The notes under the pieces were generated by a model that was not told where the DNA came from, made no database searches, and saw only the letters and a program-made list of their open reading frames with translations. Made by a program: the position numbers and the translations under genes. This document shows positions 20,204 to 64,000 of a DNA stretch of 64,000 nt, one piece after another (position 1 is the stretch's first letter; each line of letters begins with the position of its first letter). Source of the DNA: a virus; IMG/VR virus record IMGVR_UViG_3300045988_164457, positions 69,216 through 133,215 of that record; one strand, 5' to 3'.

Positions 20204-20234
20204 ATTTCAACTCACACACCCGTGAGGGTGTGAC
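20204..20234 (-). CRISPR. solitary CRISPR-repeat-like unit C (type I-C-like architecture)
   Basis: Minus sense reads GTCACACCCTCACGGGTGTGTGAGTTGAAAT: a 7-bp stem, 4-nt loop and 11-nt tail TGAGTTGAAAT identical to units A and B. Confidence 0.6.
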
Positions 20235-20417
20235 TCTCAACTTTAGCATCAGGCGTTCCGCAAAAATAACAGATAAGACAACATGCTATTGAAAGAAGAA
20301 CACTTTGCAATTCACGCAAAAATGAAAGAGTGAGCGTATTGTATGAGGGTAAGCTTAACGAGATCAATATTTATATGGGTATTGACACAATATTGCATAG
20401 TATCGTCTTATCTGTTT

Positions 20418-20502
20418 TGGTACTCCCAGACGGATTCCAACCGTCACACCTTTCGGTACTTGATTTTGAGTCAAGCGTGTCTTGCAATTTCACCATAGGA
20501 GC
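20418..20502 (-). tRNA. tRNA-Leu (anticodon CAA), class II with long variable arm
   Basis: Hand-folded cloverleaf of 85 nt with encoded CCA. The T-loop is TTGGAAT and the D-loop lacks GG. Confidence 0.8.
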
Positions 20503-20661
20503 AGATGAGTGCCTGATTATCCTCACAGGCTTTTGGGCGGTTCATTCTAAAGTTTATCCTCATCCGCTAAAACCACAAAGTCGCTATCCGTCTCGTGAAC
20601 TACTCGCCTACTCTTGTTCTACAAACAACCCTAATGTTGCTGTTTTCTCCAATTTCAGATT

Positions 20662-20738
20662 TGGTCTCCCAAGTGGAACTCGAATCCACACTGTCAGAAT
20701 TTTAAGTTCTGTGTCTCTGCCGATTGGACTATTGGGAG
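20662..20738 (-). tRNA. tRNA with anticodon TAA but class I (short variable loop) structure
   Basis: Hand-folded, 77 nt: acceptor CTCCCAA/TTGGGAG, anticodon loop CTTAAAA, T-loop TTCGAGT, A73 and CCA encoded. Confidence 0.7.
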
Positions 20739-20948
20739 ATATTTAAACCACTTAGCAGGTTTTTCATCCGCTCAAAGTCGCTATTTGTTAATATGAAACC
20801 TCATATTCGATTTTTAGTGCCAACAGAATACGACTTGTTATTACTGTTCAGACACTTAATACATATTTAATGAAATATCAGCGCCAACTGATACGACAAA
20901 ATATGTATTAGGTTGGAGACACCTTGACGGTATCAATCCTCGCACCAA

Positions 20949-21022
20949 TGGTACACCATATCGGTTCTGCCCCGATGTTTAACGATTAAAAGTCGTTTGT
21001 TCTACTATTGAACTAATGGTGC
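20949..21022 (-). tRNA. tRNA-Lys (anticodon TTT), non-canonical D and T loops
   Basis: Hand-folded, 74 nt with CCA encoded. The T-loop is GGCAGAA (no TTC) and the D-loop is AATAGTA (no GG). Confidence 0.55.
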
Positions 21023-21093
21023 TTATTCCTGACTTTTTATACGGAAGTCAGTGAAACCGTTTATGGAGGTTATACCAGAATGAAACTAACATT

Positions 21094-21167
21094 TGGTTGG
21101 GACACTCTGATTTGAACAGAGGATCACGGAGTCAAATTCCGATGCCTTACCACTTGGCTATGCCCCA
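21094..21167 (-). tRNA. tRNA-Gln (anticodon TTG)
   Basis: Hand-folded, 74 nt: D-arm GCCAAGTGGTAAGGC, T-loop TTCAAAT, CCA encoded. Confidence 0.85.
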
Positions 21168-25122: not shown

Positions 25123-25965
25123 TCAAATCTTATATCCAGATAATCTTTCAAATTCTTCCAATCCAAGGTTGAGGTCAAGCCATTTCTGACGAAGCTTCAA
25201 AGGGTTTACTGTCATATAATATTTTAATGTTGTATTAAGGTCGGCGTGAGCTACGGCTATAGAAGCAACTGCTGCATTTCTATCGTCCTCCCAGCCTCGT
25301 GATATAAACTCGCAAAAAGTTTTCCGCATAGCATGAGACGAATAATGCCCCATGATGCCAAGCTTTTGAGTTATTGCTTTAAGCCATCTGCCGATTGATG
25401 ATACAGTCATAGGGGCAATTTCCCTCTCACTTCCTTTTTCATCGTACCTCTCCCCTGTTGTGATTACATCTGCGATTTCTCCGTATTCATCATATATAAA
25501 TTCATCGAAATATGTTCTACGGTTTCCATCACCTCTAAAAAGATAATTTTCAGAAGTTAATCCCTTACGATCAATAAGGTACTTGAGAACAGTCTTTACT
25601 GCTTTATTAAAATACACAGGTCTTGCTTTATCTGTCTTCTGTTCAGCGATATACTTAATATCAAGAATGTTTCCTTTCTCATCTGTCACATCTTTCACTC
25701 TGAATGAAAGAATGTCGCCACAACGATAGCCTGTATTTATTCCGAAAACAAACATTGCTGCTTTATGGTATGCTTTTTCTTCAAAACACTGACGGATAAC
25801 AGCGTTGATATCGTTCTCGTACATAAATGCGTCCGCAGAATGTTTGGTGGGTGCTTCTACATCGGTAACAACAACTTGTCTATGTGCTACTTTACGCCTA
25901 TTTTTTCGAGATGATATATCAATAATATTGGCTGTTCCGTTGTTATAGGCTATCGCTGCGTTCAT
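25123..25965 (-). CDS. tyrosine recombinase (Xer/phage-integrase catalytic domain)
   Basis: GYRCGD (Arg I), SSHAMRKTF (HxxR) and HADLNTTLKYY (His/Tyr). Confidence 0.75.
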   Translation of the reverse strand: MNAAIAYNNGTANIIDISSRKNRRKVAHRQVVVTDVEAPTKHSADAFMYENDINAVIRQCFEEKAYHKAAMFVFGINTGYRCGDILSFRVKDVTDEKGNILDIKYIAEQKTDKARPVYFNKAVKTVLKYLIDRKGLTSENYLFRGDGNRRTYFDEFIYDEYGEIADVITTGERYDEKGSEREIAPMTVSSIGRWLKAITQKLGIMGHYSSHAMRKTFCEFISRGWEDDRNAAVASIAVAHADLNTTLKYYMTVNPLKLRQKWLDLNLGLEEFERLSGYKI

Positions 25966-26783: not shown

Positions 26784-27521
26784 TCATTCCTCCATTATTG
26801 TATCTGATTTATTTATAATCGCTTCTTTAAAAGAAGTAATTGCTGTAACAACCTCATCGAGAATAATAGTTATATCATTTAGAGCTTCGTCTCTTGTATA
26901 ACGTTTATCCGTTACAGTTTCTACCATACCAGTATAATCATCAAGTGCTTCCAAATAGTTGCTTGTCTGTGCTTGAAACATACTTGTTATCATAGCAAAA
27001 GTCAACTGTGTTTCCGTATCGTCCTTTAACCGTTTGGCACGTTCTTCAAGAGATATAGCATTAGTAGTTACAACAGTAGCATTACGCCTTTTATATAATT
27101 CAGTTGAGGATATATCACCATTAAAATACAGATGCTTGTCCTCATCTTTACAGTAGTTTAAGGCACTTATGACCTTACTCGCTTGTGCAATAGATTTTTC
27201 AGCAATGACCTTATTTACACAATTACGATTAATTTCACTAGCTATAAGCCTATCATAGCAAAAAAGTATGGTTTTACAATCTTTAATTGCCCGATCAGGC
27301 AGAAGTAATGATCGGCTCACGTCCCGATAAACAGTCTGTATCTTTTTGTTCTTCGTATCCAATGTCGCTTGCTTGTCCGCAACTTCCACCAGCTGACGGC
27401 ACAGCTCCAACGTCATTGGTTTCTTCGTTAAGAGAGGTTTCAGTTTCATTATCTGTGCAGTTACTGCTTTCTGCTCGTTCTTCCTCATAAGCAATGCTTC
27501 CTTTTTCTGTGCTGTACTCAT
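26784..27521 (-). CDS. hypothetical protein (start uncertain)
   Basis: The ORF is open from 27578. Every candidate start overlaps the 3' end of the upstream DUF262 gene by more than 100 nt. Confidence 0.45.
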   Translation of the reverse strand: MSTAQKKEALLMRKNEQKAVTAQIMKLKPLLTKKPMTLELCRQLVEVADKQATLDTKNKKIQTVYRDVSRSLLLPDRAIKDCKTILFCYDRLIASEINRNCVNKVIAEKSIAQASKVISALNYCKDEDKHLYFNGDISSTELYKRRNATVVTTNAISLEERAKRLKDDTETQLTFAMITSMFQAQTSNYLEALDDYTGMVETVTDKRYTRDEALNDITIILDEVVTAITSFKEAIINKSDTIMEE

Positions 27522-28680
27522 CCTCATCATCCCCATTATCATTTTCAGCTGTATCAAGATATTCGTCAACAAAATCATAAATTATATTTTGTCTTTCTTC
27601 TACACATTCGGAAGAATAAAAAGAACTGCCACCGTCTTTCGCATTGCACTCATCAACAAATCTCTTATAACAATCACTCTGCCAAAATGCACGAAGAAAA
27701 TCAATAAACGATTTTCCATTCTTGTTGTTTGCATTAAATGCTTTGAAATTATCAAGACCTAAAATGTAATGAGGGATCGTAATAGAGTCAAATCTTTCAA
27801 TTTCTTCACCTGTAAGATTATTTTTGTTTTCAGCAAGTTCATTTACAAGATTGAAAAGCTTATGTTTTGTATGGTCATTAACATATTCATCAAAATCATT
27901 ATCAGCAAACTTAGTCATAGCAGAAGAACCGAGATTTGTATAGTTATAACGTGTCATCATCATAAAGATTCTGATTACACAACAAAGAATACTATCGTTC
28001 TTTGCCTTACAGCCCTTACTGTCGTTCCACAGTTCACTGTCACAAATGGGCTGTACATTACGCATATTTTCTGAACCAAGAAGGAAACGCATCTTCTGAT
28101 AAGAATTAGGCGTTTTACCGTTATTCATACAGAACACAATATCATCGAGTTCTTCGTCCGTAAAGCCTTCGTGTATATATGTTGTAAGCCGATATTTATC
28201 TAAGAAAACCTTAATGGCATCTGGAAGTTGAGAATATTTCTTATTGGCAATTTCGATTTCTATCTTCATTTCATTACCTTCCTTGTCTATACCCCTGCAC
28301 GCAACGGACTTTGCTCTTTTATCAAGAGCAAATTTATCATGGTAAAAATCCACAAGGGCGGTTGTTCTCTGTAAGCCGTCCAGCAATGACGTTACAGCAT
28401 AACTTTTACTTTCAGCACGTCCTTTGGCAAGAGCTATGCTTCCAATTGGTCTATTGTGGAGAGCTGCTTCGATAAGTTTAGATTTTTGCTTCCTTGTCCA
28501 CTGGTCATCAGTACGCTGGATAAGCGGATCACGGCAAATTTCTCCGTTATCTACTTCTTCCACATACATTTTTACAGAATAAGGTATCATCCGTACATCG
28601 GATTCTTCACGCACACGCTCTGCAATGGTATAGGTAGTTCCATCGATTTCTATAACATTGAAATCTTTTTTCTTTGCCAT
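27295..28680 (-). CDS. DUF262 (ParB-fold) protein with acidic C-terminal tail
   Basis: DPLIQRTDDQWTRKQKSKLIEA and LLDGLQRTTAL. Confidence 0.65.
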   Translation of the reverse strand: MAKKKDFNVIEIDGTTYTIAERVREESDVRMIPYSVKMYVEEVDNGEICRDPLIQRTDDQWTRKQKSKLIEAALHNRPIGSIALAKGRAESKSYAVTSLLDGLQRTTALVDFYHDKFALDKRAKSVACRGIDKEGNEMKIEIEIANKKYSQLPDAIKVFLDKYRLTTYIHEGFTDEELDDIVFCMNNGKTPNSYQKMRFLLGSENMRNVQPICDSELWNDSKGCKAKNDSILCCVIRIFMMMTRYNYTNLGSSAMTKFADNDFDEYVNDHTKHKLFNLVNELAENKNNLTGEEIERFDSITIPHYILGLDNFKAFNANNKNGKSFIDFLRAFWQSDCYKRFVDECNAKDGGSSFYSSECVEERQNIIYDFVDEYLDTAENDNGDDEDEYSTEKGSIAYEEERAESSNCTDNETETSLNEETNDVGAVPSAGGSCGQASDIGYEEQKDTDCLSGREPIITSA

Positions 28681-28683
28681 AAT

Positions 28684-28872
28684 TTATTCCTCCTTTATAT
28701 ACTTATTCCGATAAACTCGCACTGCTTCTTCAATAAATGCATTAAGACTTAATCCTTGTTTATCTGCTTCAGACTTCCATTCATCTTTTACACCTTTTTT
28801 GACTGTAACAGATATTCTGTCATATACTTTCGCATTATATTTGTTCTTTGCCTTTGTTGATGATTTTCCCAT
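28684..28872 (-). CDS. ribbon-helix-helix (Arc/CopG-like) protein
   Basis: RISVTVKKGVKDEW...GLSLNAFIEEAV, with a GGAGG RBS. Confidence 0.55.
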   Translation of the reverse strand: MGKSSTKAKNKYNAKVYDRISVTVKKGVKDEWKSEADKQGLSLNAFIEEAVRVYRNKYIKEE

Positions 28873-29019
28873 TATTTAAACCTCCAATTTTAAACTTTGA
28901 AATTGTCTTGAATAATCAAAAGACTTTACTAATCTATTCATCCCTAAATAGAAAACTTTGTAGTACATATGTAATCACTCTTTTTTCACTTAATTATTCA
29001 AAACAATTTTTGACCGCTC

Positions 29020-29048
29020 TTGACAAATTCAAAAACATATGTTATGAT
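29020..29048 (+). promoter_or_regulatory. module M1 rightward promoter
   Basis: TTGACA-17-TATGAT with upstream TG. Confidence 0.65.
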
Positions 29049-29093
29049 ATAAAACTAAGGTTTTATTTTACTTTATTGGTTGACCTTGGTATA

Positions 29094-29122
29094 ATAATAC
29101 CACATATTAGGGAACTTGTCAA
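29094..29122 (-). promoter_or_regulatory. module M1 leftward promoter (faces the rightward one)
   Basis: Reverse complement reads TTGACA-17-TATTAT. Its -10 lies 45 bp from the plus-strand -10. Confidence 0.6.
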
Positions 29123-29203
29123 TATATTTGTGGTATATTATTGTACAATTTTTTCTATCTTATTTTGTTAAATATTCCTATACCGAAAGGAGCATGAGCA
29201 TGT

Positions 29204-29410
29204 ATGAATCAATTTTCTTTACAAGTAAAAGAATATTTATTAAGAAATAATCTTAAACAGAAAGACATTGTTGAAAAGCTGGGGTTATCCAAAAATGCAA
29301 TCAGTCAATCACTTAATCGTGATAACATTTCTCTTGACAAAATGCTTCTCATTGCCGATGCTTTGGACTGCGACCTGGAGATTAAGCTTGTGCCGAGGTC
29401 TAAGTCTTAA
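29204..29410 (+). CDS. XRE-family HTH regulator (Aca-like candidate)
   Basis: LKQKDIVEKLGLSKNAISQSLN helix-turn-helix. Confidence 0.75.
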   Translation: MNQFSLQVKEYLLRNNLKQKDIVEKLGLSKNAISQSLNRDNISLDKMLLIADALDCDLEIKLVPRSKS

Positions 29411-29443
29411 CATAATTATAATGTAAAATAAGGAGTTGTTATT

Positions 29444-29773
29444 ATGAACAATAGTATCGCTTCCCAGCTCAAAGCTATTGAAAAGAAAATCCAAAAGGAA
29501 TCAGCAGAATACCAAGCTAAATTAAACAAAACATCAAAAAGAAATTGGTTTACGAATGATTTTATGAAAAGTATTCATTCTATATCAATTGAAGCATTAT
29601 TCGCCAAAGCTAATATTGATATATCTCACATCGATAATTTAACAGACGATGAGATTGCTGAATTAGAAAAAGTCATTCCTTCAAAGTTTAAATCGTGGGA
29701 AGATTTTTATAAAGAAGCATTTAAGTTTAATGTCAAGAAATTCATATTAGATTCTCAGTCTAACAGGCGTTAA
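29444..29773 (+). CDS. hypothetical protein
   Basis: 109-aa ORF 33 nt after the HTH gene, with an AAGGAG RBS. Confidence 0.55.
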   Translation: MNNSIASQLKAIEKKIQKESAEYQAKLNKTSKRNWFTNDFMKSIHSISIEALFAKANIDISHIDNLTDDEIAELEKVIPSKFKSWEDFYKEAFKFNVKKFILDSQSNRR

Positions 29774-29938
29774 AAGTATAGTATCTTCATTCAAACTGGA
29801 TGTAGCCCATTCAAAATTGTCACAGGTGAGATGAGTATCGCTTTTAATCACCCCATCGGCTATCCCCTGTTCTACCAAACGATAGAACTCCTTTTCATTG
29901 ACTTTTGTTTTAATATGTATTGTTAAATTTTTGCTCAT
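29747..29938 (-). CDS. hypothetical small protein (63 aa)
   Basis: Start at the ATG after AGAGAGG. The ORF track starts at 29989. Confidence 0.45.
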   Translation of the reverse strand: MSKNLTIHIKTKVNEKEFYRLVEQGIADGVIKSDTHLTCDNFEWATSSLNEDTILLTPVRLRI

Positions 29939-29957
29939 ATTAACAAACCTCTCTGAT

Positions 29958-30182
29958 TTAATAATCTTGAACAATGTAATTTGATCCACAAGGCATAGAA
30001 TTTATCTCATTCTCATATGGATCAATATGGGCAACCAAACGTCCGTCTGTAGTGAAATATTCAACAACTTCTCTAAGCGGTTCCTTAGATAAATTGTTAC
30101 TTGACTTTCCTCCCTCTTTAGATTTTACCTCAATAAGAGTAATCATTCTTACTCGTGTTGTAGACGTATAATTTTTTAACAT
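29958..30182 (-). CDS. hypothetical small protein (74 aa)
   Basis: GGAGG RBS upstream of the ATG. Confidence 0.5.
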   Translation of the reverse strand: MLKNYTSTTRVRMITLIEVKSKEGGKSSNNLSKEPLREVVEYFTTDGRLVAHIDPYENEINSMPCGSNYIVQDY

Positions 30183-30274
30183 TTTAATTGCCTCCTATTT
30201 CCGACACAATTAACAAAATATACAATAAAAATAGTGCGGTCTGACAATTTTTTCTATCAAACCGCACTATTTTC

Positions 30275-30303
30275 TTGATTTTTCGTAGATAATCTGATAC
30301 AAT
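30275..30303 (+). promoter_or_regulatory. promoter upstream of CRISPR-like unit A
   Basis: TTGATT-17-TACAAT. Confidence 0.5.
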
Positions 30304-30400
30304 CAAAAGTAATTGGAAGACTCATACACCCCTTTTCTACGTATTACTTACAGCAGTTTGACTACCTACAGAGGAGGGGATTTGTATAAAGGTTTTGATT

Positions 30401-30433
30401 GTCGCACCCCATGTGGGGCGTGTGAGTTGAAAT
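30401..30433 (+). CRISPR. solitary CRISPR-repeat-like unit A (type I-C-like architecture)
   Basis: GTCGCACCCCATGTGGGGCGTGTGAGTTGAAAT. No partner repeat within 200 bp on either side. Confidence 0.65.
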
Positions 30434-30594
30434 TTGATTATGTATCGGATTACCTACTATATCTATTATACTGCAATGCAGATAATAAATCAAGTCGATT
30501 TAGTGCGATTTTCAAATTTTATATATAACATGGGATAATACATTACATTGGCAACTATCCTTTCTATTTTTATTACTATAAATGAGGTGTTCTT

Positions 30595-32037
30595 ATGTTA
30601 GTCTTCACAACAACATTTCCCATTTCAAATAACTTATCTGTCGAAAGTTTTATAAATCTCGCTGTCGAATGGGTTTCAAATTCCAAATCCAAATACAATT
30701 TTGATGATTTTATATGGAATGGGTCAACAACTTTTTCAGTAACGGATATGTCTGGAAATGTTGAACTATCCATAAACACAATCAACGAAACACAGACCGT
30801 AGCTATCAGATTAAAAAATCTTGATGGGTCTATTGAATGGATAAGTGACTTTATTATGACAAACAATCATATTTCTGTTCAACTTCAACGAAATTCAACT
30901 GACAATGCAGATTATATTCCAAAATTTCATATTCCATATTTTTTAAGAATGATTTTAGGAAAAAACTATGGCGGATGCGATAATTGTTTAAACATCAGTA
31001 CCTCTCCTACTATTATAACAGAAAAAAATATATCTATAATTGTAGATATAATTAATTCAGGTAGTTTATATAAACTCCCGATTGTGTATATATCTCGACA
31101 AATGCCGGGAGATTATAGCATAGATGCTAATCAAATGGCACGTAAACTTGCTGGAATAGCACATATCTTAGTTGAAAACGATACGTCAGTATCAAGATTG
31201 CTTCAAGAAAAAACATCAAGTGCCAATCCATACAATGGAGCAATTCAAGTATATTACCCAAAGAATTTTACTAAAAGATTTATCCCTGAATATTTTTATT
31301 CTCGAAAAGAAATGCAAGATAGCATTATTAGTTTTATAAGTGAACGTAATCTTCAAATGAAAATTGATGAACAGTATCAATATTATTATGTAACGCAACG
31401 CATTCTTAACAATAAGCGATTAGAAGCGGAAAAGAAACATAAACAATCTGAAAACGATATTGACTCATTGACTGAAATGTATGATGCACTTGAAAAACAA
31501 TACCAAGCTCTCAAAGAGGAACAGGAACATTTAAGTTCTGAATTAAATGATTCCAAGGCCAAAACTATATTTTTGCAAGATCAAGTTATGGAATTAAAAG
31601 AAAAATTAGATCAACAAACCAATGACCAAAACACACCTTTAATATATCATGGTGATGAACCTGATTTATATACAGGTGAACAACACGATATTCTTTTAGC
31701 AGTACTTGCCGATGCTTTAAACAAAATTATTCCCAATGATACACCCTCCTCTCGCAGACACGATGTAATCAATTCTATTTTAAAACAAAACAAACCAATC
31801 GGTGTGTTAAATAACAAATTAGAAGTTGTTAATCAAGTTTTTAAACATTCCAAATTAACCAAACAAGATATTGTTGAATTACAAAAAATCGGATTATGTC
31901 TTACTTCGGACAAAAACCATTATAAATTTACATTTATGAACAAGCCATGTTATTATACTACAGTTTCTAAAACAGCAAGTGATATAGGACATGGAAACAA
32001 AAACACAGCTAATCAAATAAAGAGGTCATTCTTTTAA
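30595..32037 (+). CDS. hypothetical 480-aa protein: N-terminal globular domain, central coiled coil, C-terminal domain
   Basis: GAGGTG RBS. A heptad-rich QSENDIDSLTEMYDALEKQYQALKEEQEHLSSELNDSKAK segment. No catalytic motif recognised. Confidence 0.7.
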   Translation: MLVFTTTFPISNNLSVESFINLAVEWVSNSKSKYNFDDFIWNGSTTFSVTDMSGNVELSINTINETQTVAIRLKNLDGSIEWISDFIMTNNHISVQLQRNSTDNADYIPKFHIPYFLRMILGKNYGGCDNCLNISTSPTIITEKNISIIVDIINSGSLYKLPIVYISRQMPGDYSIDANQMARKLAGIAHILVENDTSVSRLLQEKTSSANPYNGAIQVYYPKNFTKRFIPEYFYSRKEMQDSIISFISERNLQMKIDEQYQYYYVTQRILNNKRLEAEKKHKQSENDIDSLTEMYDALEKQYQALKEEQEHLSSELNDSKAKTIFLQDQVMELKEKLDQQTNDQNTPLIYHGDEPDLYTGEQHDILLAVLADALNKIIPNDTPSSRRHDVINSILKQNKPIGVLNNKLEVVNQVFKHSKLTKQDIVELQKIGLCLTSDKNHYKFTFMNKPCYYTTVSKTASDIGHGNKNTANQIKRSFF

Positions 32038-32421
32038 TCTTACTAAGGTATCTCTTGCAAATTCTAAGTAAGGTCTTTCAAATATCCTATAACAAATGAT
32101 TGGGTTATCATATTCATTTGTACAGATATTAATCGCCCCGATTGTTAATGTATGATTAGATAATTCAAGCGGTATCCCCCATTTAGCTAAAATATCCACA
32201 TCGGTGGTCAGCTTTACATAACATCCAAATGGTAACAAGTCATCTTCGTTCATTATTAAGTCGTAGTTGGACGGAACACCTGTTAAGTCATAATATTTTT
32301 TAACGGCATCCGTTAAAGTTATATGCTTGTGTTCTGCGATTTTTGTGACGATCTCAAGATAATTCATACTCTTGGGGTCAACACTTAAATCAACTTCGTT
32401 GTTGAAATACGCTCTGTTCAT
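32026..32421 (-). CDS. hypothetical protein
   Basis: 131-aa ORF convergent with, and 12 nt overlapping, the 480-aa gene. Served by the M2 leftward promoter. Confidence 0.6.
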   Translation of the reverse strand: MNRAYFNNEVDLSVDPKSMNYLEIVTKIAEHKHITLTDAVKKYYDLTGVPSNYDLIMNEDDLLPFGCYVKLTTDVDILAKWGIPLELSNHTLTIGAINICTNEYDNPIICYRIFERPYLEFARDTLVRLKE

Positions 32422-32460
32422 GTGACACCTCTTTGACTATGTAAAGTTATAATAATTACT

Positions 32461-32499
32461 CACTAATATTTATATGTATTTGCATATTAAATATTAGTG
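32461..32499. promoter_or_regulatory. palindrome CACTAATATTTA-N15-TAAATATTAGTG (operator candidate)
   Basis: 12-bp perfect inverted arms in the leader of the 131-aa gene. Confidence 0.4.
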
Positions 32500-32524
32500 T
32501 TTAATATATTCTTTTCTATACTAC

Positions 32525-32710: not shown

Positions 32711-33319
32711 ATGATTAAATGCAATTTAAAATCTCTAAGATTTAACCATAATGACATATCTCAAAAAGAGTTATCCCAGAGCGTAAATATTAGAACACAA
32801 ACAATCTCTGATATGGAAATGGGGAAAACTAAATCTTACTCAGTTGAAAATTTGAATAAGTTATGCAACTATTTCAAATGCGACATATCAGATATCATTA
32901 GCTATGTTCCTGATGCACCAAACATCGTCTGCACATCTCATAGAATAACGTCAATACCTATCTCAGTAGTTGCAGCTGGTGCTGGTATATCCACTAAATT
33001 TACAATAGATAATTCATTTGAGAAGAAGGAATTTCCATCTGATGTTGTTCCCTCTAATGCTGATTGCGGTATTCGTATCAATGGTGACTCAATGTCCCCT
33101 GATTACCCCGATGGCTGTATTGTTTGGGTAAAACAAACCACTGAGGTCAAATATGGAGATGAGGTAATTGTCATTCTTAACGGTTCCCCCTATTTCAAAA
33201 TATACGAGAGAGACGGTCTTCAATCAATCAATCCTGATTATCCGGTTATAAAGATTTATGATGATGACAAAATCTCTGTATTTGGTAAAGTTATAGGAGC
33301 TTGTACTGACAACATCTAA
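32711..33319 (+). CDS. LexA/CI-like repressor (XRE HTH plus S24 self-cleaving peptidase)
   Basis: HTH ISQKELSQSVNIRTQTISDME, the catalytic Ser motif GDSMSP and a downstream Lys in YFKIY. Confidence 0.8.
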   Translation: MIKCNLKSLRFNHNDISQKELSQSVNIRTQTISDMEMGKTKSYSVENLNKLCNYFKCDISDIISYVPDAPNIVCTSHRITSIPISVVAAGAGISTKFTIDNSFEKKEFPSDVVPSNADCGIRINGDSMSPDYPDGCIVWVKQTTEVKYGDEVIVILNGSPYFKIYERDGLQSINPDYPVIKIYDDDKISVFGKVIGACTDNI

Positions 33320-34067: not shown

Positions 34068-36341
34068 ATGTCAATATCTATTAATCCTAGCGAAGCAATA
34101 ACCGAAAGTATATTTAGAAATTTTTATGGAACTAACACTTTTTTAGAAAAAGCTTCTATTCCAGAAACATATGGATTCAAATCCAAAAAAGGGACTAGCA
34201 AAAGAGGTTATCCAGATTTCTTTTTAGATTCCTATAATGAATATTGTATTGTTGTTGAAATCAAAGCGTATATTGAAGACCATTCGATTGCACAAAAAGA
34301 AGTTAAACATTATATGAATAACAACAATATAACTAAAGACATAATTGGCATGGCTGTATCTGGACAGAATTTAAATGACTTGCGTGTGTCAATTTATTTT
34401 AAATTATCAAAAGGAAAAGTAAATTATATAGACACAAAAAAATTATTATCACTAAACGATATAAAAAAAGAATACGAAAAAAGAAATCCTCCTAATACAA
34501 TAAGTAATGATGAGCTAATTAAAGAATTAAAAAAACTAAACAAAGAATGGCACTCTATGAGTTTACAACCCGCTTATAGAAGTCTCTTGTTCTCAGCTAT
34601 AATGATTGCATTAAAAAACAGTAATTTTCGTAGCACATATAAATTTATTACCCCTCCATCTAAAAGTGATTCTACTAATGCAAATATTATTGTAGAGTCA
34701 TCCAATATGAACAAGGCTATTTTAACCGCAATAACAGAAGAATTACACGATAAAATTAGTAATAAATCTAAGAAATTTAGTTGGGAGGATCAATTTGCAT
34801 TCATTAATAATCTACCAATTCCGTTGCAAAAATATAAAGAGCAAATCGAGGAAATTGAGAAAAAATGTTTTTCACCTCAAAACAATAAGAAGCAAGACAT
34901 TCTCGGGAAAGCATATAAAATATTTTTAGAAAGAGCAGGCAAAACATTAGATAAAAACATAATACTCACTCCTTATCATATTATACATTTTATGGTGAAA
35001 TTAGCTCATCTCACCCCAGACGATGTCGTATTAGATACTTGTACTGGTTCAGGTGGATTTTTAATGGAAGCAATGGAACAAATGATACAAATTTCATATT
35101 TATCCCAGAAATTTTCTTCTCCAGAAAAGTGCGAAGAAAACATAAAAAAGCATCAGCTTATTGGATTTGAAAACGATTCAACATTATTTTCATTAGCCTG
35201 TTCTAATATGTTTTTACATGGAGACGGGAAAACAAACCTCATTTTTAGAAGTTCATTAATAAATGATATAAATGAAAATTTAATCAATGATAATGATGAT
35301 GACTTATTAGCATATATACACGCATTAAATCCTACTAAATGTATAATCAATCCACCATATGAAAACAATAAACCAATTGTTTTTACAAAACAGGCAATAG
35401 AATATCTTAATTCAGATTGTGGACGATTAGTAATTATTATGCCAACCGATACATTACAAAAAGATGTTGACACCACTAAAGAAATATTGACAACTTCAAA
35501 ATTAGAATGCGTTATTAAAATGCCTGACCAGTTATTTTCAGAACAGAAAAGAATCGTTGATACATCGATATTTATTTTTCAAAAGCCACATCCACATCAA
35601 ATTTCGGACGAAACATTATTTTACGATCTTGAGGATGACGGTCATGTTTCTGTACAACATAAAGGCAGGGTTGATAAAGATTCACGATGGGATAATATAG
35701 AAAAGGATGCACTTGATGTCATCAATAACTTCAAAGAAATTTCAAACAAAAGCCAAAAGACTAAAATATTTGATAAAGACGGTAATTTTATATTTAACCA
35801 AGATTTAAAAAAATTAAAAGCAACTAAGTTTAAACAGCTACCAATTGAAGATTTGTTTACAGTCAGCAAAGGCACTTTAGCAAGTCAAAAAAATGTTAAT
35901 GGTGATTATCCTTTTATTACAGCTGATAAAAATTGGAAAAAGCATAACACATATGACATTGATGACGAAGCTATTGTTTATGCCGTAGATTCAGCGGGGT
36001 CACTTGGCAGAACTCATTATGTTAATGGTAAATTTATAGCAAGTAATCTTTGCTTAGTATTAAGAAATAAAAATAATCCCGATTATCCAATTAATTTGAA
36101 ATTTTATAATTACTACTTTCAGTCTATAAGATCACAAATTGTAAAGTCTTTAAAAAGCGGAAAATCTAAAAAAACAATTAGTTCTAATTATTTTAAAAAG
36201 TTTAAGATTGATTATATTCCATACAAAAAGCAATTAGAATTTTTAGAACAAGTAGAATCCTTTAATGAAATAGAGCAAAAATATATTCAAGCACGTAAAG
36301 ATTTTGAAGAGAAAATAGAAAATTTAATTGATATTATTTAG
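34068..36341 (+). CDS. single-polypeptide restriction-modification enzyme (HSDR_N-type nuclease, gamma N6-adenine methyltransferase and HsdS-like TRD; Type IIG-like)
   Basis: N-terminus GYPDFFLD...CIVVEIKAY (PD...ExK), motif I VLDTCTGSGGFL, motif IV CIINPPYE, and a C-terminal TRD-like GDYPFITADKNW...ASNLCLVLR. Confidence 0.75.
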   Translation: MSISINPSEAITESIFRNFYGTNTFLEKASIPETYGFKSKKGTSKRGYPDFFLDSYNEYCIVVEIKAYIEDHSIAQKEVKHYMNNNNITKDIIGMAVSGQNLNDLRVSIYFKLSKGKVNYIDTKKLLSLNDIKKEYEKRNPPNTISNDELIKELKKLNKEWHSMSLQPAYRSLLFSAIMIALKNSNFRSTYKFITPPSKSDSTNANIIVESSNMNKAILTAITEELHDKISNKSKKFSWEDQFAFINNLPIPLQKYKEQIEEIEKKCFSPQNNKKQDILGKAYKIFLERAGKTLDKNIILTPYHIIHFMVKLAHLTPDDVVLDTCTGSGGFLMEAMEQMIQISYLSQKFSSPEKCEENIKKHQLIGFENDSTLFSLACSNMFLHGDGKTNLIFRSSLINDINENLINDNDDDLLAYIHALNPTKCIINPPYENNKPIVFTKQAIEYLNSDCGRLVIIMPTDTLQKDVDTTKEILTTSKLECVIKMPDQLFSEQKRIVDTSIFIFQKPHPHQISDETLFYDLEDDGHVSVQHKGRVDKDSRWDNIEKDALDVINNFKEISNKSQKTKIFDKDGNFIFNQDLKKLKATKFKQLPIEDLFTVSKGTLASQKNVNGDYPFITADKNWKKHNTYDIDDEAIVYAVDSAGSLGRTHYVNGKFIASNLCLVLRNKNNPDYPINLKFYNYYFQSIRSQIVKSLKSGKSKKTISSNYFKKFKIDYIPYKKQLEFLEQVESFNEIEQKYIQARKDFEEKIENLIDII

Positions 36342-38132: not shown

Positions 38133-38258
38133 GTAAGCAAGTAATATATCTGATTTACCACATTGAATATTACATTTTGGTTCTACTAATTTAAACATAG
38201 TATGATAAGTATGTACAAAGTACAAATTAGTGACTATTATTTTACGGAGGAAAAAATT

Positions 38259-41200
38259 ATGGGACAATTTAATATGCAATTTACATTAGAGGAGCATTTT
38301 AAAAACTTAAGCGAATCCTATGAACAAGTTACTGATGTATACTGCCTTTGGAACTTATTAAAAAAAGACATTTCTGAAAAGCTTATAAATACATATCGTA
38401 ATTACCCTTATTTCAGTAAACATGATGCCTCACATTCAAAAACAATAATAACTAATATTGAACTTTTCTTAGGTAAGGAAAGGATACAAGCACTTTCAGC
38501 AACAGATACAATTATGTTGCTTATTTGTGCATATATGCACGATTACGGTATGGCATTAGATTTAGAAGAAATATTCAGCATTCTTAATGATTCAGAAGAT
38601 AAATTTAAAAATTTTTTAAAAGACAAAAAAAATGAAAATATTTACGCTAAACGAATATTAGACTATTATAACAAAGAAAAGTCCGATGGTAATTTAAAAG
38701 AATTATATTATTCAATATTAATTATGCTTCAAGATTTAAACAGACCATATCATTGGGTAGGTGTCGAAAAAATACGACATGATTACGAATGCTTGTTTGC
38801 AAAAAGAATTAAAGTGAGATTCGTCACAGCAATAATTGATATTTGTCAGATGCACGGTAAAAATGTGGAGGCAATTTCCACGTTAAGCCGTCGATCAAAT
38901 GGTATGTTTGCCGATGTTTTTCATCCTAGATTTATTGCTGCTATGATTCGTTTAGGTGATTTATTAGATTTAGACAATCATAGATTTAGTCAAGAATTTG
39001 AACGTGCTATGCAAAAAAACGATAATTTAATACCAGAGTTATCAAAAATTCATTATTTAAAGCATGAATCTATAACTAACTTTTTAATAACTCCAGAATA
39101 TATCGATATAGAAGCAATATGTAATGGAAATGATGCTTTAGCATTATCTGTCGCAAGAGAAATATATGATTGGTTACACTGGTTAGAAAATGACTGTATA
39201 TATTTAAAACAAGAATGGGATATGATTGCACAAAAAGATTTTGGAACTTCGCCTAAAATAAGAAATAAAAAAATTTTAGTAAACGGTATGGAATATCACC
39301 ATTTTGTATATAACTTAAGAATGGAACTTCCAAGTGATAGAATTTTTGAACTTCTTATCGGAAGTAATGTTTATGAGAATAAATATGTAGCATTTCGAGA
39401 AATTATTCAAAACGCCATTGATGCAACCTTATTGCAAATATGGGAAAATTTTTATAATAATTTACCACCTAATACTTTAAAAAGCTCATATTCATCAAAG
39501 TTAGCAGAGTATTGTTTATCATCAAATTTTGATAATGAATATAAAATACAAGTAAATGTAATTGAAAACATTAAAGAAAATGCTGTTTACGTTGAAGTAA
39601 TCGATAATGGAATTGGAATAGGTGATGAGGATTTACAATACATGTGTAGAATAGGAGAAAATAATATATGCAATCCTCAACGTCATAAATTCATAGACCA
39701 GATGCCAGATTGGTTTATTCCATCAGGCGTGTTTGGTATTGGATTACAAAGTGCCTTTCAATTAACAAATGAAATAGAATTTTTCACCAAAAAAGCTAAC
39801 AGAACTCCACGACATATACGCTTCTCTTCTTATTCTAGCAACCAAGGAAAAATTGAGGTTTCAAAATGCCCAAATTCATATTTAGAACAGTTTAATAAAT
39901 TATCGACACAAGGCACTTTAGTAAGATTAAAAATTAATCCTAAATTTTTTAGAAAGAACAAAGATTTTGATTATTTTGATTTAGCGTTTGAAAACGAAAA
40001 GCTTAACAGTCATGTCATATTTGTTGAAATCATTTATCAATTAAAAAAATATATAGAAACACAAAAAATTAATTATATGCCCATATTTTTTTCGAATTAT
40101 ATTATAGAAGATACAACTAATATTTCAAAGAAAGAAAAAATGAAACGTATAAGTAAAGATGAAAGCTTTTATTATGTTATGAATATGACTGAAACTGGTC
40201 AAAAAATAAAGTTGACCAAAAAGAATGATTTTATAATTTTAAATTATTGGAACAATGATAAAAATATTTTTTTAGAGGTGCAAATTCCTAAATGCAACAT
40301 TTTGAACCCCTCAGATGCAAAGAAAATTCTATTTTCATTACAATTTCTTGATAATGCTTTTTTAATTAAATACAAGCATAATATTATAAATAATTATGAG
40401 CAATTATTTGGATATCGTTCTAGTCAAACTGATACTCAAGTATATGATTTAAACAATAATATAATAAGATGTTTAGTTAATATTTTTGATAAGAACCCCG
40501 AAAATTATTTAAACATTGACAGAAATGTTTTAAAATATGGGAAAATAACTTATTCTGATATAGCAACTTGTGAGGAAGAAATGTTTTCCTTATTTTGCAG
40601 TAAGGTTTCCGAAAAAAAACTATTGGACGGTAAAAAGGCTTTTATTTCAAAAAATGATTATCTCCCGATTTTATCTATTTTATTTTTTCGATTTGCACGA
40701 AAGAAAGCTCTCAAATCATTTATTTTAAAATATGGCAAAGATTTACAAAATTATGAGATATCACTTAATAATGATGGTATATCTTATAATATACAATTAC
40801 AAAAAATTTTAGGTATAGAAAATAACAATTTTTTTGTTTATGATATTGTTGAAAGCAAATATGAATCTTTTTTTAATGTTGAAGATGTTAAAAATTTTGA
40901 GGAATCTCAAATAAAGCCAATTTATGTATCAGATCTATATAATTATTTCCCACGTCACTTTTTTATACCTGTTAAAATTACTATTCAAAAATACAATTCA
41001 AAATTATGTATAATTTATGAATGCCAAATAAGAATGAATACAAATCAAAATAATGAACAGTGTTTTATTGACATTGATGAAAATTATTGGAAACTAGATT
41101 GCATTAGTTTTAGCAATGCTAATAAAAGTTCCTCAAATAAAACTGTTTTAAAGCCAATATCTAAATATAAATGTTTAATTACAAAGTCATTTCCAAAACC

Positions 41201-41516
41201 ATTTTATAAAAGTACTATGTTTAGAAACGTGTTAGATCAAAACATTTCTACGTATATTATTTTCCCTTTAGAACAAAATTTAACACATCAATTATATAAA
41301 TGTAAAGAATGCAACTCAGAAAATGATTTAAAAACCATCTTAAAAGAAATAAACAATAGTATGGTCAAAGATCCTTACTTTAAAAAGTGTTTGAATTATG
41401 TTAGAAAGAATTCTTGTCAACCAAATACAACTGATGAACTTATTATAAATGATTACAAACAATTAATTCTTGATATCGGAAACGAATTTTTTTGTTTAAA
41501 TAACAAAAAGCAATAA
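38259..41516 (+). CDS. 1085-aa HD-domain plus GHKL (Hsp90/MORC/sacsin-like Bergerat) ATPase protein with ~500-aa uncharacterised C-terminal region
   Basis: HD: KHDASHSK, YMHDYGM, RLGDLLDLD. GHKL: N-box FREIIQNAIDA, G1 VIDNGIGIGDEDL, G2 SGVFGIGLQSAF. Start at the ATG 8 nt after GGAGG; the ORF track starts at 38202. Confidence 0.75.
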   Translation: MGQFNMQFTLEEHFKNLSESYEQVTDVYCLWNLLKKDISEKLINTYRNYPYFSKHDASHSKTIITNIELFLGKERIQALSATDTIMLLICAYMHDYGMALDLEEIFSILNDSEDKFKNFLKDKKNENIYAKRILDYYNKEKSDGNLKELYYSILIMLQDLNRPYHWVGVEKIRHDYECLFAKRIKVRFVTAIIDICQMHGKNVEAISTLSRRSNGMFADVFHPRFIAAMIRLGDLLDLDNHRFSQEFERAMQKNDNLIPELSKIHYLKHESITNFLITPEYIDIEAICNGNDALALSVAREIYDWLHWLENDCIYLKQEWDMIAQKDFGTSPKIRNKKILVNGMEYHHFVYNLRMELPSDRIFELLIGSNVYENKYVAFREIIQNAIDATLLQIWENFYNNLPPNTLKSSYSSKLAEYCLSSNFDNEYKIQVNVIENIKENAVYVEVIDNGIGIGDEDLQYMCRIGENNICNPQRHKFIDQMPDWFIPSGVFGIGLQSAFQLTNEIEFFTKKANRTPRHIRFSSYSSNQGKIEVSKCPNSYLEQFNKLSTQGTLVRLKINPKFFRKNKDFDYFDLAFENEKLNSHVIFVEIIYQLKKYIETQKINYMPIFFSNYIIEDTTNISKKEKMKRISKDESFYYVMNMTETGQKIKLTKKNDFIILNYWNNDKNIFLEVQIPKCNILNPSDAKKILFSLQFLDNAFLIKYKHNIINNYEQLFGYRSSQTDTQVYDLNNNIIRCLVNIFDKNPENYLNIDRNVLKYGKITYSDIATCEEEMFSLFCSKVSEKKLLDGKKAFISKNDYLPILSILFFRFARKKALKSFILKYGKDLQNYEISLNNDGISYNIQLQKILGIENNNFFVYDIVESKYESFFNVEDVKNFEESQIKPIYVSDLYNYFPRHFFIPVKITIQKYNSKLCIIYECQIRMNTNQNNEQCFIDIDENYWKLDCISFSNANKSSSNKTVLKPISKYKCLITKSFPKPFYKSTMFRNVLDQNISTYIIFPLEQNLTHQLYKCKECNSENDLKTILKEINNSMVKDPYFKKCLNYVRKNSCQPNTTDELIINDYKQLILDIGNEFFCLNNKKQ

Positions 41517-45195: not shown

Positions 45196-45224
45196 AATCT
45201 ATCATAATATCCGTGTGATTTCAA
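45196..45224 (-). promoter_or_regulatory. promoter whose -35 (TTGAAA) is the 3' end of CRISPR-like unit B
   Basis: Reverse complement reads TTGAAA-17-TAGATT. Confidence 0.5.
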
Positions 45225-45250
45225 CTCACACACCCCACACGAGGTGCGAC
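45218..45250 (-). CRISPR. solitary CRISPR-repeat-like unit B (type I-C-like architecture)
   Basis: Minus sense reads GTCGCACCTCGTGTGGGGTGTGTGAGTTGAAAT, beginning 12 nt after a -10 box. Confidence 0.7.
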
Positions 45251-45262
45251 CCGATTACCCCT

Positions 45263-45291
45263 ATTCTATCATAATATCCATGCGAAGTCAA
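45263..45291 (-). promoter_or_regulatory. promoter driving CRISPR-like unit B
   Basis: Reverse complement reads TTGACT-17-TAGAAT. Confidence 0.6.
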
Positions 45292-62697: not shown

Positions 62698-62771
62698 GGC
62701 GAGTTGGTCTAATGGTAGGATTAGGGTCTCATAAACCTTAGATTTACGTTCAAGTCGTAAGCTCGCACCCA
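62698..62771 (+). tRNA. tRNA with anticodon CAT (Met, fMet or Ile2 identity unresolved)
   Basis: Hand-folded, 74 nt: D-arm GTCTAATGGTAGGAT, anticodon loop CTCATAA, T-loop TTCAAGT, CCA encoded. Position 1-72 is a G-A mismatch. Confidence 0.75.
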
Positions 62772-64000
62772 ATAGTAAAAATCACTGTCAATGAAGGTTT
62801 TTGTAATAACCATCGTGAGTGTACGATTATATTATGGTCAAATTTAATCAGATGCCTCAAATTATGATGATTATAGTTTTTGGCGTTATACATAGCTATG
62901 AGCATTTGTATTAACAATAGTTGACAAAGTGTTTGACCAACACTATTCGTCTGATGACAAGGATAAGAGTAAATGGATATGATGCCTTGTAAAAACTTTA
63001 TTCTAACGTGTGCAATAAACCTATTAAGATTATCCATTCGAGATAGTACGAATAGAATAGACATACTGAAGTAATTGGATTCTGATTTATCAGAATGGGC
63101 GTTTATAAGTATGTTATATGTAAACACAGATTTAATACGTTTGTGTTTACACCAAGTAGGCAGTTCTCGATAATCTGCTGTTAGTAGCTCTGTCTGCGGA
63201 CAACTGAGGTCAAAGTAGATATGCGTATCAAAATGACTAAATCAAATATGAAGTGAAACCAACACTCTTTAAATAAATGGTAAAAACGGAAAATATAAAA
63301 CAATAATAAACTTGTTTGTAAGAAAGATGCTTGCATTTTCCCATTTTCACTACCGTTTGTGAAGTTTATTCGTCCAGTCGAGGGTGGAATGACGTTAAAC
63401 TCTACCCTACCATAATGGTTCTGAGAAAATAATTATCAGAATTATGTTTACAATAACCCCGATGAAAACGGTTGTCAACCTTTCGGGACACGATTATAAT
63501 GAATGTTTATGGAATGATAGTTTTATAAGCAAGTCAACTTTGTATTATGAAAGTATGCAAGATGAGAGGAAAATCCTCAAATTTAGTTGTGGTGCTAAGA
63601 GTTATCGCTTCAAAAAGCACAGAACTTATCGCTGTGGTAATAGACGCTTCTGTGAAGAATAAGCCTTATACTAACGAGTGGAATCGCAAAGTCACTAAGG
63701 TAATCCAAAAGAACACAGTCTGTTTTGATGCTTGAGAAATCAAGCTATAAGGTAAGTCGCTGGTAAAAGTAGCCATATGACAGTATTGGGAACAAATCTT
63801 TTTTTTGTAATGATTTTAAAGAAAATTTCAAATGCTGAATGACTGGTGAAATTTGTGTATAACCAATTACACGCAAGCTTTGAGAGTAATCTACGGTAAG
63901 AAGCTATAGGGTCGCTACCTATAGTTCAGCCTTATCGTCTTGGTGGCTGAATATTGAAGAAGATAATGGAGGTACGGCGAAGGTCGTATTGCAGGCATAA
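62772..64000 (+). ncRNA. candidate large structured non-coding RNA (truncated by window end)
   Basis: More than 1.2 kb without an RBS-supported ORF, visibly more GC-rich than its surroundings. Many local hairpins, e.g. 63079-63096, 63120-63150, 63904-63924 and 63925-63951. Directly downstream of a tRNA. Confidence 0.35.

Follow-up and report, generated by a model that had tools for sequence, protein, structure and literature searches.

The 64,000-nucleotide stretch of viral DNA analysed here (the window; positions 69,216 to 133,215 of IMG/VR record IMGVR_UViG_3300045988_164457) carries at 30401-30433 a solitary repeat resembling those of type I-C CRISPR arrays, which we call unit A. We regard unit A, with moderate confidence and by analogy with known elements, as a candidate RNA anti-CRISPR (Racr) against the type I-C systems of gut Clostridia. 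Racrs are phage-borne solitary repeat units (SRUs) behind promoters, whose RNAs bind Cas proteins, giving aberrant subcomplexes, and compete with CRISPR RNAs (crRNAs) (PMC10651486); experiments have shown that one of them, RacrIC1, rescues a phage confronted with a type I-C system (Camara-Wilpert et al., Nature 2023, PMC10651486). Unit A belongs to this known, already catalogued kind of element. What appears to be undescribed elsewhere, as far as we have seen, is its allelic exchange with a small peptide gene in a shared frame of promoter, leader and tail, the stem mismatch of its common allele, and its link to a phage-borne orphan array that targets the same phage lineage.

Solitary type I-C repeats in the window

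A covariance model made from the consensus repeats of 28 real type I-C arrays was run over the whole window with filters off and gave three significant matches: unit B (49.5 bits), unit A (47.7 bits, E 7e-9) and unit C (36.7 bits). The fourth-ranked match reached only 11 bits and was the antisense of unit A. Since there are only these three matches and the next lies at 11 bits, we take unit A to be real, far beyond chance, and solitary. The 33-mer itself, GTCGCACCCCATGTGGGGCGTGTGAGTTGAAAT, lies on the plus strand, with 0 matches expected from 100 shuffles of the window, and neither a full nor a degenerate partner repeat for it was found in the window by the covariance model or a Hamming scan. 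An earlier, sequence-only reading of this DNA had called an I-C-like repeat at this place and found no partner within 200 bp; its sequence, strand and subtype are borne out, and under the covariance model the absence of a partner holds across the whole window. A mini-array with a degenerate second repeat (GTCG...TTCAAAT, 30494-30517) was considered and rejected, as the second copy gave no model match and its 3′ end is unconserved in relatives. A plus-strand open reading frame (ORF) over the repeat (30313-30528, TTG start) was rejected as coding because all five differences in the relative L001 are non-synonymous. Rfam gave no match to a CRISPR-DR family here, only chance-level matches to a hairpin at 30214-30285.

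Unit A has a G+C content of 58% against 32% for the window, and its RNA is predicted to form a stem-loop with an energy of −12.7 kcal/mol (z = −2.6 relative to shuffled sequence). The nuclease Cas5c/Cas5d processes type I-C repeats by cutting at the 3′ base of the stem, which leaves an 11-nt 5′ handle, and by analogy with this processing cleavage of unit A would be expected at 30422/30423. The handle is intact, as are seven of the eight stem pairs; pair 6-19 (30406/30419) is an A.C mismatch. In the 28 array consensus repeats every stem position is a standard pair, with double compensatory changes in five of the eight pairs, and pair 6-19 is AU in 12, GC in 12, CG in 3 and UA in 1, so that the A.C mismatch is the single departure of unit A from the array-repeat family. 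A second allele with T at position 19 (T19), found in the relatives L001 and L155, has a fully paired stem. The minimum-energy fold of the C19 allele in the window is shifted in register by one base, with C19 bulged and the stem extended across the expected cleavage site.

To place unit A among genuine arrays, one genome per prokaryotic species was scanned for GTCGC-N16-GTGAGTTGAAAT. This gave at least 120 loci. Many of them are arrays in which the repeat measures 33 nt and the spacers 33-36 nt, and these lie mostly in metagenome-assembled genomes (MAGs) of gut Clostridia. Among the matches listed, the closest array repeat was GTCGCACCCCGTGTGGGGTGTGTGAGTTGAAAT, with two mismatches to unit A and one to unit B. 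It is carried by a MAG of Ruminococcaceae (L040) and by one of Huintestinicola (L085). The L085 array adjoins genes matching Cas3, Cas5c, Cas8c/Csd1, Cas7/Csd2, Cas4, Cas1c and Cas2 in canonical I-C order, and most of these matches exceed the curated NCBIfam cut-offs. Because an array only two mismatches away adjoins a complete I-C cas operon, the type I-C assignment of unit A holds, and matching type I-C systems are present in gut Oscillospiraceae/Ruminococcaceae MAGs. Unit A shares its stem register, loop size and 11-nt handle with the genuine arrays of gut Clostridia such as that of L085. Unlike them it is a single copy with no spacers and no cas genes, it sits on a phage of much lower G+C, and its flanks, like those of units B and C, are without similarity to the leaders of the nine closest arrays, which speaks against capture of a CRISPR leader.

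Unit B is identical to unit A at 30 of 33 positions and has a fully paired stem. It lies 12 nt past a promoter on its own strand (45291 to 45263) and is enclosed by two copies of this promoter: over 45196-45291 on the minus strand it is flanked by TTGACT-17-TAGAAT upstream and TTGAAA-17-TAGATT downstream, and the −35 box of the downstream copy is formed by the last six bases but one of unit B. From this layout it looks as if unit B was inserted with a duplication of the promoter. A flank-pattern scan for alleles without unit B gave one relative only. Unit C, which the sequence-only reading did not list, differs in its stem with full compensation, has the same handle as units A and B, and is located immediately downstream of a tRNA cluster, with a small ORF beginning some 60 nt further on. 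The cluster, at 20418-21167 on the minus strand, comprises Leu-CAA, Leu-TAA and Gln-TTG genes according to ARAGORN, and Rfam adds a further tRNA at 20952-21022 that ARAGORN does not call. Each of the three units is intact from where its stem begins to where the handle, identical in all three, ends, and each has, on the same strand and no more than about 130 nt away, a promoter-like site. By their sequences units B and C appear to mimic other I-C repeat variants, which would give the phage a small panel of decoys.

An orphan array on a 146-kb viral contig (IMGVR_UViG_3300045988_158063) has a repeat identical to unit C. That array has at least 19 repeats and adjoins genes for NrdD, NrdG and a dUTPase, and no cas genes were found within about 10 kb of it. 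One of its spacers (L137:184-218) matches the window at 1165-1195 (protospacer on the minus strand) over 29 of 31 aligned bases, with a 5′ flank of CTC. There are therefore guides of the I-C type against this phage lineage, against which a decoy would be of use. The match suggests phage-against-phage targeting that borrows the type I-C proteins of the host. Other viral contigs also carry different solitary I-C-like units with the same handle: at L008:5756-5788 and about 60 nt upstream there are two different units 58 nt apart, and one at L011:13374-13406 lies 20 nt ahead of the start codon of a gene.

The available part of the SRUFinder table (PMC10651486) already lists type I-C SRUs of this kind from gut virus genomes. 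Its entries include GTCGCACCCCATGTGGGGTGTGTGAGTTGAAAT, which is the T19 allele and differs from unit A of the window by 1 nt, GTCGCACCTCGTGTGGGGTGTGTGAGTTGAAAT, which is exactly unit B, and GTCACACCCTCACGGGTGTGTGAGTTGAAAT, which is exactly unit C; in these entries units B and C come from the same genomes, with about 25-26 kb between them, and the window shows the same spacing. The exact C19 allele of unit A was not found in that part of the table, perhaps because its four mismatches to the reference repeat put it under the cut-off of the tool.

A conserved expression frame with an exchangeable cassette

Unit A lies 97 nt past the end of the −10 hexamer of a sigma-70-type promoter-like site and ends 162 nt ahead of the start of a 480-amino-acid (aa) ORF, in agreement with the distances of about 90 and 160 nt given by the sequence-only reading. 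The site is predicted on the same strand as unit A and within 250 bp upstream of it, and its hexamers are conserved in relatives, in several of which the −10 is TATAAT. L145 and L146 are more distant relatives, with 78% identity in the homologue of the 74-aa protein encoded next to the promoter. They retain hairpin and promoter directly ahead of a protein gene, and leader and repeat are absent from between them. Because the promoter is kept in relatives and drives a protein gene in L145/L146, we consider that it very probably works and that unit A is probably transcribed in the crRNA sense, as the sequence-only reading had proposed from the upstream site.

The leader between promoter and repeat is predicted to form a hairpin (30317-30396) in which a pyrimidine tract pairs with the GGAGG-containing tract AGAGGAGGGG. 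Six of its pairs vary on one side among the contigs, and pairing is kept by G.U/G-C exchange in plus-strand RNA only; no double compensatory change was seen among the related contigs compared.

The comparison covers 25 contigs that share this module, the window included, which were collected by pattern scans of viral and metagenome sequence and from contigs encoding homologues of the 74-aa protein. The relatives are IMG/VR viral contigs and gut metagenomes; INPHARED phage records gave no match to 28600-32500. The module runs in a constant order of hairpin (30227-30274), promoter, 97-nt leader, the short direct repeat TTTTGATT, a variable cassette, TTGATT and a 77-nt tail. In 15 of the 25 contigs the cassette is the 33-nt repeat, which is the C19 allele in 13 and the T19 allele in 2 and otherwise invariant, and these 15 contigs differ in their flanking genes. 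In the other ten it is about 205 nt long and holds a 49-aa ORF with a TTG start, LIALLSILGTIVIPITLVIIVKMCLNDKKHRFSIRLGKNGFKVDIRPID (for example L148:2529-2678; the same site is occupied in L144, L147, L149-L152, L156 and L160-L162), followed by a stem-loop and T-run that we read as a terminator.

Codon changes in the 49-aa ORF among the ten contigs are mostly synonymous (four against two non-synonymous, with one further synonymous change in a partial copy), and for that reason we think the ORF is a genuine gene for a small hydrophobic peptide, as this pattern suggests. The peptide has no Pfam or PHROG match. Together with the convergent promoter-like site in the tail, the peptide gene resembles the layout of a type I toxin-antitoxin pair, a likeness that concerns consensus matches only. 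The two alleles are found on different flanking backgrounds, and L156 combines the peptide allele with the downstream sequence of the window. Relatives that have no repeat ahead of the tail conserve it equally well; the tail is therefore no spacer fitted to the repeat. As judged from these contigs, the repeat is accessory cargo placed in a pre-existing expression frame. Homology with the relatives always breaks at 30599, at the beginning of the 480-aa gene. The coordinates of the module and of the genes around it are collected in Table 1.

Table 1. Position, strand and basis of the features named in the text, by position in the window.
Feature	Position	Strand	Basis or remark
Unit C, third solitary type I-C repeat, 31-nt core GTCACACCCTCACGGGTGTGTGAGTTGAAAT	20204-20236	−	covariance model, 36.7 bits (20204-20234)
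Tyrosine integrase	25123-25965		4.4 kb from unit A
XRE-type helix-turn-helix gene, 68 aa	29204-29410	+	Pfam HTH_3, E 7e-8
74-aa gene, divergent from the promoter of the repeat	29958-30182	−	conservation
Terminator-like hairpin, 20-bp stem complete only in minus-strand RNA (G.U pairs), then T-run	30227-30274	−	
Rightward sigma-70-type promoter-like site TTGATT-17-TACAAT with TG extension	30275-30303	+	consensus match
Conserved 97-nt leader	30304-30400	+	conservation, predicted fold
TTTTGATT, left copy of the short direct repeat flanking the cassette	30393-30400	+	end of leader
Unit A, solitary type I-C-like repeat	30401-30433	+	covariance model, fold
Stem of unit A	30403-30410 paired with 30415-30422	+	predicted fold
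Loop of unit A (4 nt)	30411-30414	+	predicted fold
11-nt 5′ handle of unit A, TGAGTTGAAAT	30423-30433	+	sequence
Conserved 77-nt tail, opening with TTGATT (right copy of the direct repeat)	30434-30510	+	conservation
Minus-strand promoter-like site TTGATT-17-TATAAT (10/12) within the tail	30465-30493	−	consensus match
Promoter-like site of the 480-aa gene	30511-30539	+	consensus match
480-aa gene	30595-32037	+	PADLOC candidate defence family HEC-07, E 6e-14
CI-like repressor with S24 peptidase domain	32711-33319		
Unit B, second solitary type I-C repeat	45218-45250	−	covariance model, 49.5 bits

Proposed action of unit A and competing explanations

In the mechanism that we favour, the promoter at 30275-30303 would drive transcription of the repeat in the crRNA sense, within an untranslated RNA made up of leader, repeat and tail. 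Cas5c of the host, the type I-C processing nuclease and binder of the 5′ handle, would bind the hairpin and its 11-nt handle and possibly cut between 30422 and 30423. Cas5c, together with the Cas7 and Cas8c that assemble on the handle, would then be sequestered on an RNA that guides nothing, so that genuine crRNAs would be outcompeted and interference against the phage or prophage lowered. What we observe is the sequence of unit A and its fold, its closeness to the repeats of a cas-linked I-C array, its lack of partners, the conserved promoter on its strand, its retention in relatives and its place on a phage. Transcription, binding and cleavage by Cas5c, titration of Cas subunits and the effect on immunity are inferred, the steps with Cas proteins by analogy.

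Unit A resembles the published SRUs, RacrIC1 included (PMC10651486), in being a lone repeat mimic that a phage carries away from any cas genes or array, in having a promoter less than 250 bp upstream, in a subtype that matches real arrays and in having the type I-C hairpin and handle. Unlike RacrIC1, which lies 11 nt downstream of an acrIC5 homologue, unit A lies 97 nt into a structured leader ahead of a gene, with no recognisable acr gene near it. It also differs from the published SRUs in its A.C stem mismatch, in being allelic with a hydrophobic-peptide gene and in belonging to a genome with three units.

Several observations weigh against an anti-CRISPR role. None of the 1228 spacers of the listed arrays with 33-nt GTCGC-N16-GTGAGTTGAAAT repeats matches the window over 24 nt or more, and the closest array-bearing MAGs have a G+C of 45% against 32% for the phage. 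The A.C mismatch at a pair that is standard in 28 of 28 arrays may impair recognition. The minus-strand promoter-like site in the tail and the terminator-like hairpin, both read from sequence, leave some doubt as to which strand is transcribed. Purifying selection is not demonstrable, as all copies are nearly identical. Finally, the repeat is absent from the exact site in 10 of the 25 related contigs, in which the immediate flanks are conserved. The sequence-only reading had named absence from relatives with conserved neighbours as evidence against its proposal; this is seen in part, with 15 of the 25 contigs carrying the repeat, and we do not take it as a refutation because presence and absence of this kind is usual for accessory counter-defence cargo.

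The main rival is that unit A is an inert relic, a repeat gained by recombination with an array borne by a host or phage and carried, at a spot prone to recombination, as neutral cargo with no anti-CRISPR role. We think this unlikely, though several points favour it: the site is a swap point where either the 33-nt repeat or the peptide cassette of about 205 nt sits between the TTTTGATT/TTGATT direct repeats, related large phages carry orphan arrays that are possible repeat donors, the stem mismatch is absent from all array consensus repeats, and the copies are too nearly identical for constraint to be demonstrated. A relic would have to account for three separate intact units per genome, each oriented in the sense direction behind a promoter-like site, for retention of the unit across 15 contigs with shuffled flanks, and for the lack of any spacer or partial-repeat debris adjoining unit A.

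A quite improbable family of readings makes the repeat part of an RNA device operated by Cas5c, either as a leader that is cut off the downstream message and so senses a type I-C host, or through a minus-strand anti-repeat RNA that blocks processing of pre-crRNA. The frame in question is the one that sister phages use for the toxin-like peptide with its convergent antisense promoter. In such a device the A.C mismatch, by favouring in the predicted fold a shifted stem over the cleavage site, could make unit A a trap that is not cleavable. The two forms are possible and have no direct support. For the first, a switch in the 5′ untranslated region through which binding or cleavage by Cas5c at the repeat would alter the stability or translation of the downstream message and let the phage sense a type I-C host, we see no terminator-like site between unit A and the downstream gene, and unit B, unit C and the L011 unit likewise lie just upstream of ORFs. 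Such a switch is hard to square with a downstream gene that has its own promoter-like site (30511-30539) and that varies between the HEC-07-like 480-aa gene and a DUF6173 gene while the repeat module stays constant, and it has no precedent; we give it a slim chance.

The second form is slightly less probable still. Transcription from 30493 to 30465 towards the hairpin at 30274 to 30227 would yield an RNA of about 230 nt antisense to unit A, which would control the sense transcript, as in type I toxin-antitoxin systems, or pair with the repeats of host pre-crRNA. The promoter-like site matches the consensus at 10 of 12 positions and is invariant in 25 of 25 contigs, partly by construction as it lies inside the collection pattern for 11 of them; the hairpin, complete only on the minus strand by virtue of G.U pairs, is conserved in L144-L151 and partly in L145/L146; and the hydrophobic-peptide gene of the sister phages in the same frame recalls a type I toxin-antitoxin pair. 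These elements are consensus matches only, and the hairpin, part of the conserved backbone adjoining the 74-aa gene, could instead be an operator. L145 and L146 have the hairpin but no copy of the tail or the minus-strand promoter in the stretch read, and units B and C show no such arrangement.

Viral crRNA-like regulators (Cracr) have been reported for type I-C (Liu et al., bioRxiv 10.1101/2024.10.29.618823), and unit A shares with them a phage-borne repeat-like unit followed by unique, potentially guiding sequence. The repeat and the next 30 nt or so would then guide the Cascade complex of the host to silence a cas promoter or that of a CRISPR-guarding toxin. Unlike for a Cracr, no match to a cas or toxin promoter was found for the sequence that follows unit A, and there is neither a second repeat nor a terminator past the would-be spacer. 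For the 10 nt that immediately follow units A, B and C, no TTC-flanked match was obtained in about 120 array loci, most of which stop short of the cas3 promoter. With this seed search negative and the tail equally conserved in the ten contigs without a repeat, and thus independently of it, we regard a guiding role as very improbable. Least probable of all is a recombination or attachment site for integration into host CRISPR arrays or exchange with them: prophage integration into a CRISPR repeat is described in the literature and a tyrosine integrase gene lies 4.4 kb away, but the site is not adjacent to that gene, 25 of 25 contigs run through it with phage DNA on both sides, and recombination with arrays would be destructive for a genome whose three units lie in two orientations.

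If unit A is active as a Racr, it would be another type I-C RNA anti-CRISPR, from phages of human-gut Clostridia, and the three decoys per genome would suggest panels of repeat mimics tuned to the variants that these phages meet. The swap with the peptide gene illustrates how a 33-nt element drops into a ready-made frame of promoter and leader, and bears on the origin and spread of RNA anti-CRISPRs. The picture of the field is unchanged; the present work adds one case and a construct, 30275-30510.

Neighbouring genes and phage context

The sequence-only reading had suggested that the repeat may belong to a composite anti-CRISPR locus together with candidate anti-CRISPR (Acr) proteins and an anti-CRISPR-associated (Aca) regulator, and this part of it finds no support. 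The helix-turn-helix (HTH) gene exists as described, but it is the first gene of its own rightward operon behind strong divergent promoters at 29020-29122. The three small ORFs to the left of the repeat also exist, one of 109 aa on the plus strand, but those of 63/80 aa and 74 aa lie on the minus strand, which the sequence-only reading did not mention. The locus resembles an acr-aca operon in having an HTH gene and small ORFs within about 1.2 kb. It differs in that the HTH gene comes first and not downstream of small acr-like genes, in that the 63-aa and 74-aa ORFs are on the minus strand, and in giving no match to known Acr or Aca proteins in the databases scanned. A role of the HTH gene as an Aca finds no supporting evidence, and its position in a lysogeny-control region does not fit one. 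Nothing here supports protein Acrs or an Aca, and the absence of matches does not exclude either.

No significant match bearing on anti-CRISPR function was found for the three small ORFs in Pfam, PHROGs or PADLOC, and comparison of the 74-, 109- and 480-aa proteins with PDB sequences gave nothing significant. The 74-aa ORF is, judging by its conservation, a real gene: homologues fall into eight clusters at 73-97% identity, and it stays beside the promoter in contigs with the repeat, in those with the peptide gene and in those with neither. Its sole family match is a weak one to a PHROG of unknown function. Of the small ORFs for which the sequence-only reading had suggested structure prediction, this protein was modelled with AlphaFold; the model is all-beta and of low confidence, with a predicted local distance difference test (pLDDT) score of 64. 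A Foldseek search of the PDB library with it gave a best E of 0.6, and a row for AcrIF9 in that search is meaningless at a template modelling (TM) score of 0.25. The 109-aa and 63/80-aa ORFs are present in L001, and a 234-aa gene stands in their place in L002, L003, L006 and L010. Downstream of the repeat, most relatives have a 128-aa DUF6173 gene in place of the 480-aa gene.

The left third of the window encodes a DNA polymerase, helicases, a ligase and exonucleases. Around unit A, besides the integrase and the CI-like repressor, there are genes for a DUF6551 protein, a GmrSD_N/NsnA-like protein and an Arc-like 62-aa protein, and further to the right for another XRE protein and a type IIG restriction-methylase-like protein. 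The gene content marks this as the region for lysogeny control and accessory functions in a temperate phage. No Cas family was found among the window proteins scanned, and no prophage copies among the bacterial loci fetched for the array work.

A run of defence-like genes crosses this region, with the GmrSD_N/NsnA-like gene at 27295-28680 (−), the HEC-07-like gene at 30595-32037 (+), the type IIG restriction-methylase-like gene at 34068-36341 (+) and a gene for a 1104-aa protein with HD-CE and HATPase_c_3 domains at 38202-41516 (+). Its sequence gives the region the look of a defence island carried by a prophage, in which the swap points lie at 29397/29962 and 30599/33381. Two ORFs on the minus strand, at 26784-27578 (264 aa) and 27295-28680 (461 aa), overlap by about 280 nt, which may reflect a frameshift, a mis-called start or a true overlap; the calls in relatives are shorter, at 87-189 aa. 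At the right end of the window a full-length ROOL RNA lies at 63439-64000 (+) (Rfam RF03087, 313 bits, E 4e-71), adjoined by a tRNA-Met gene at 62698-62771.

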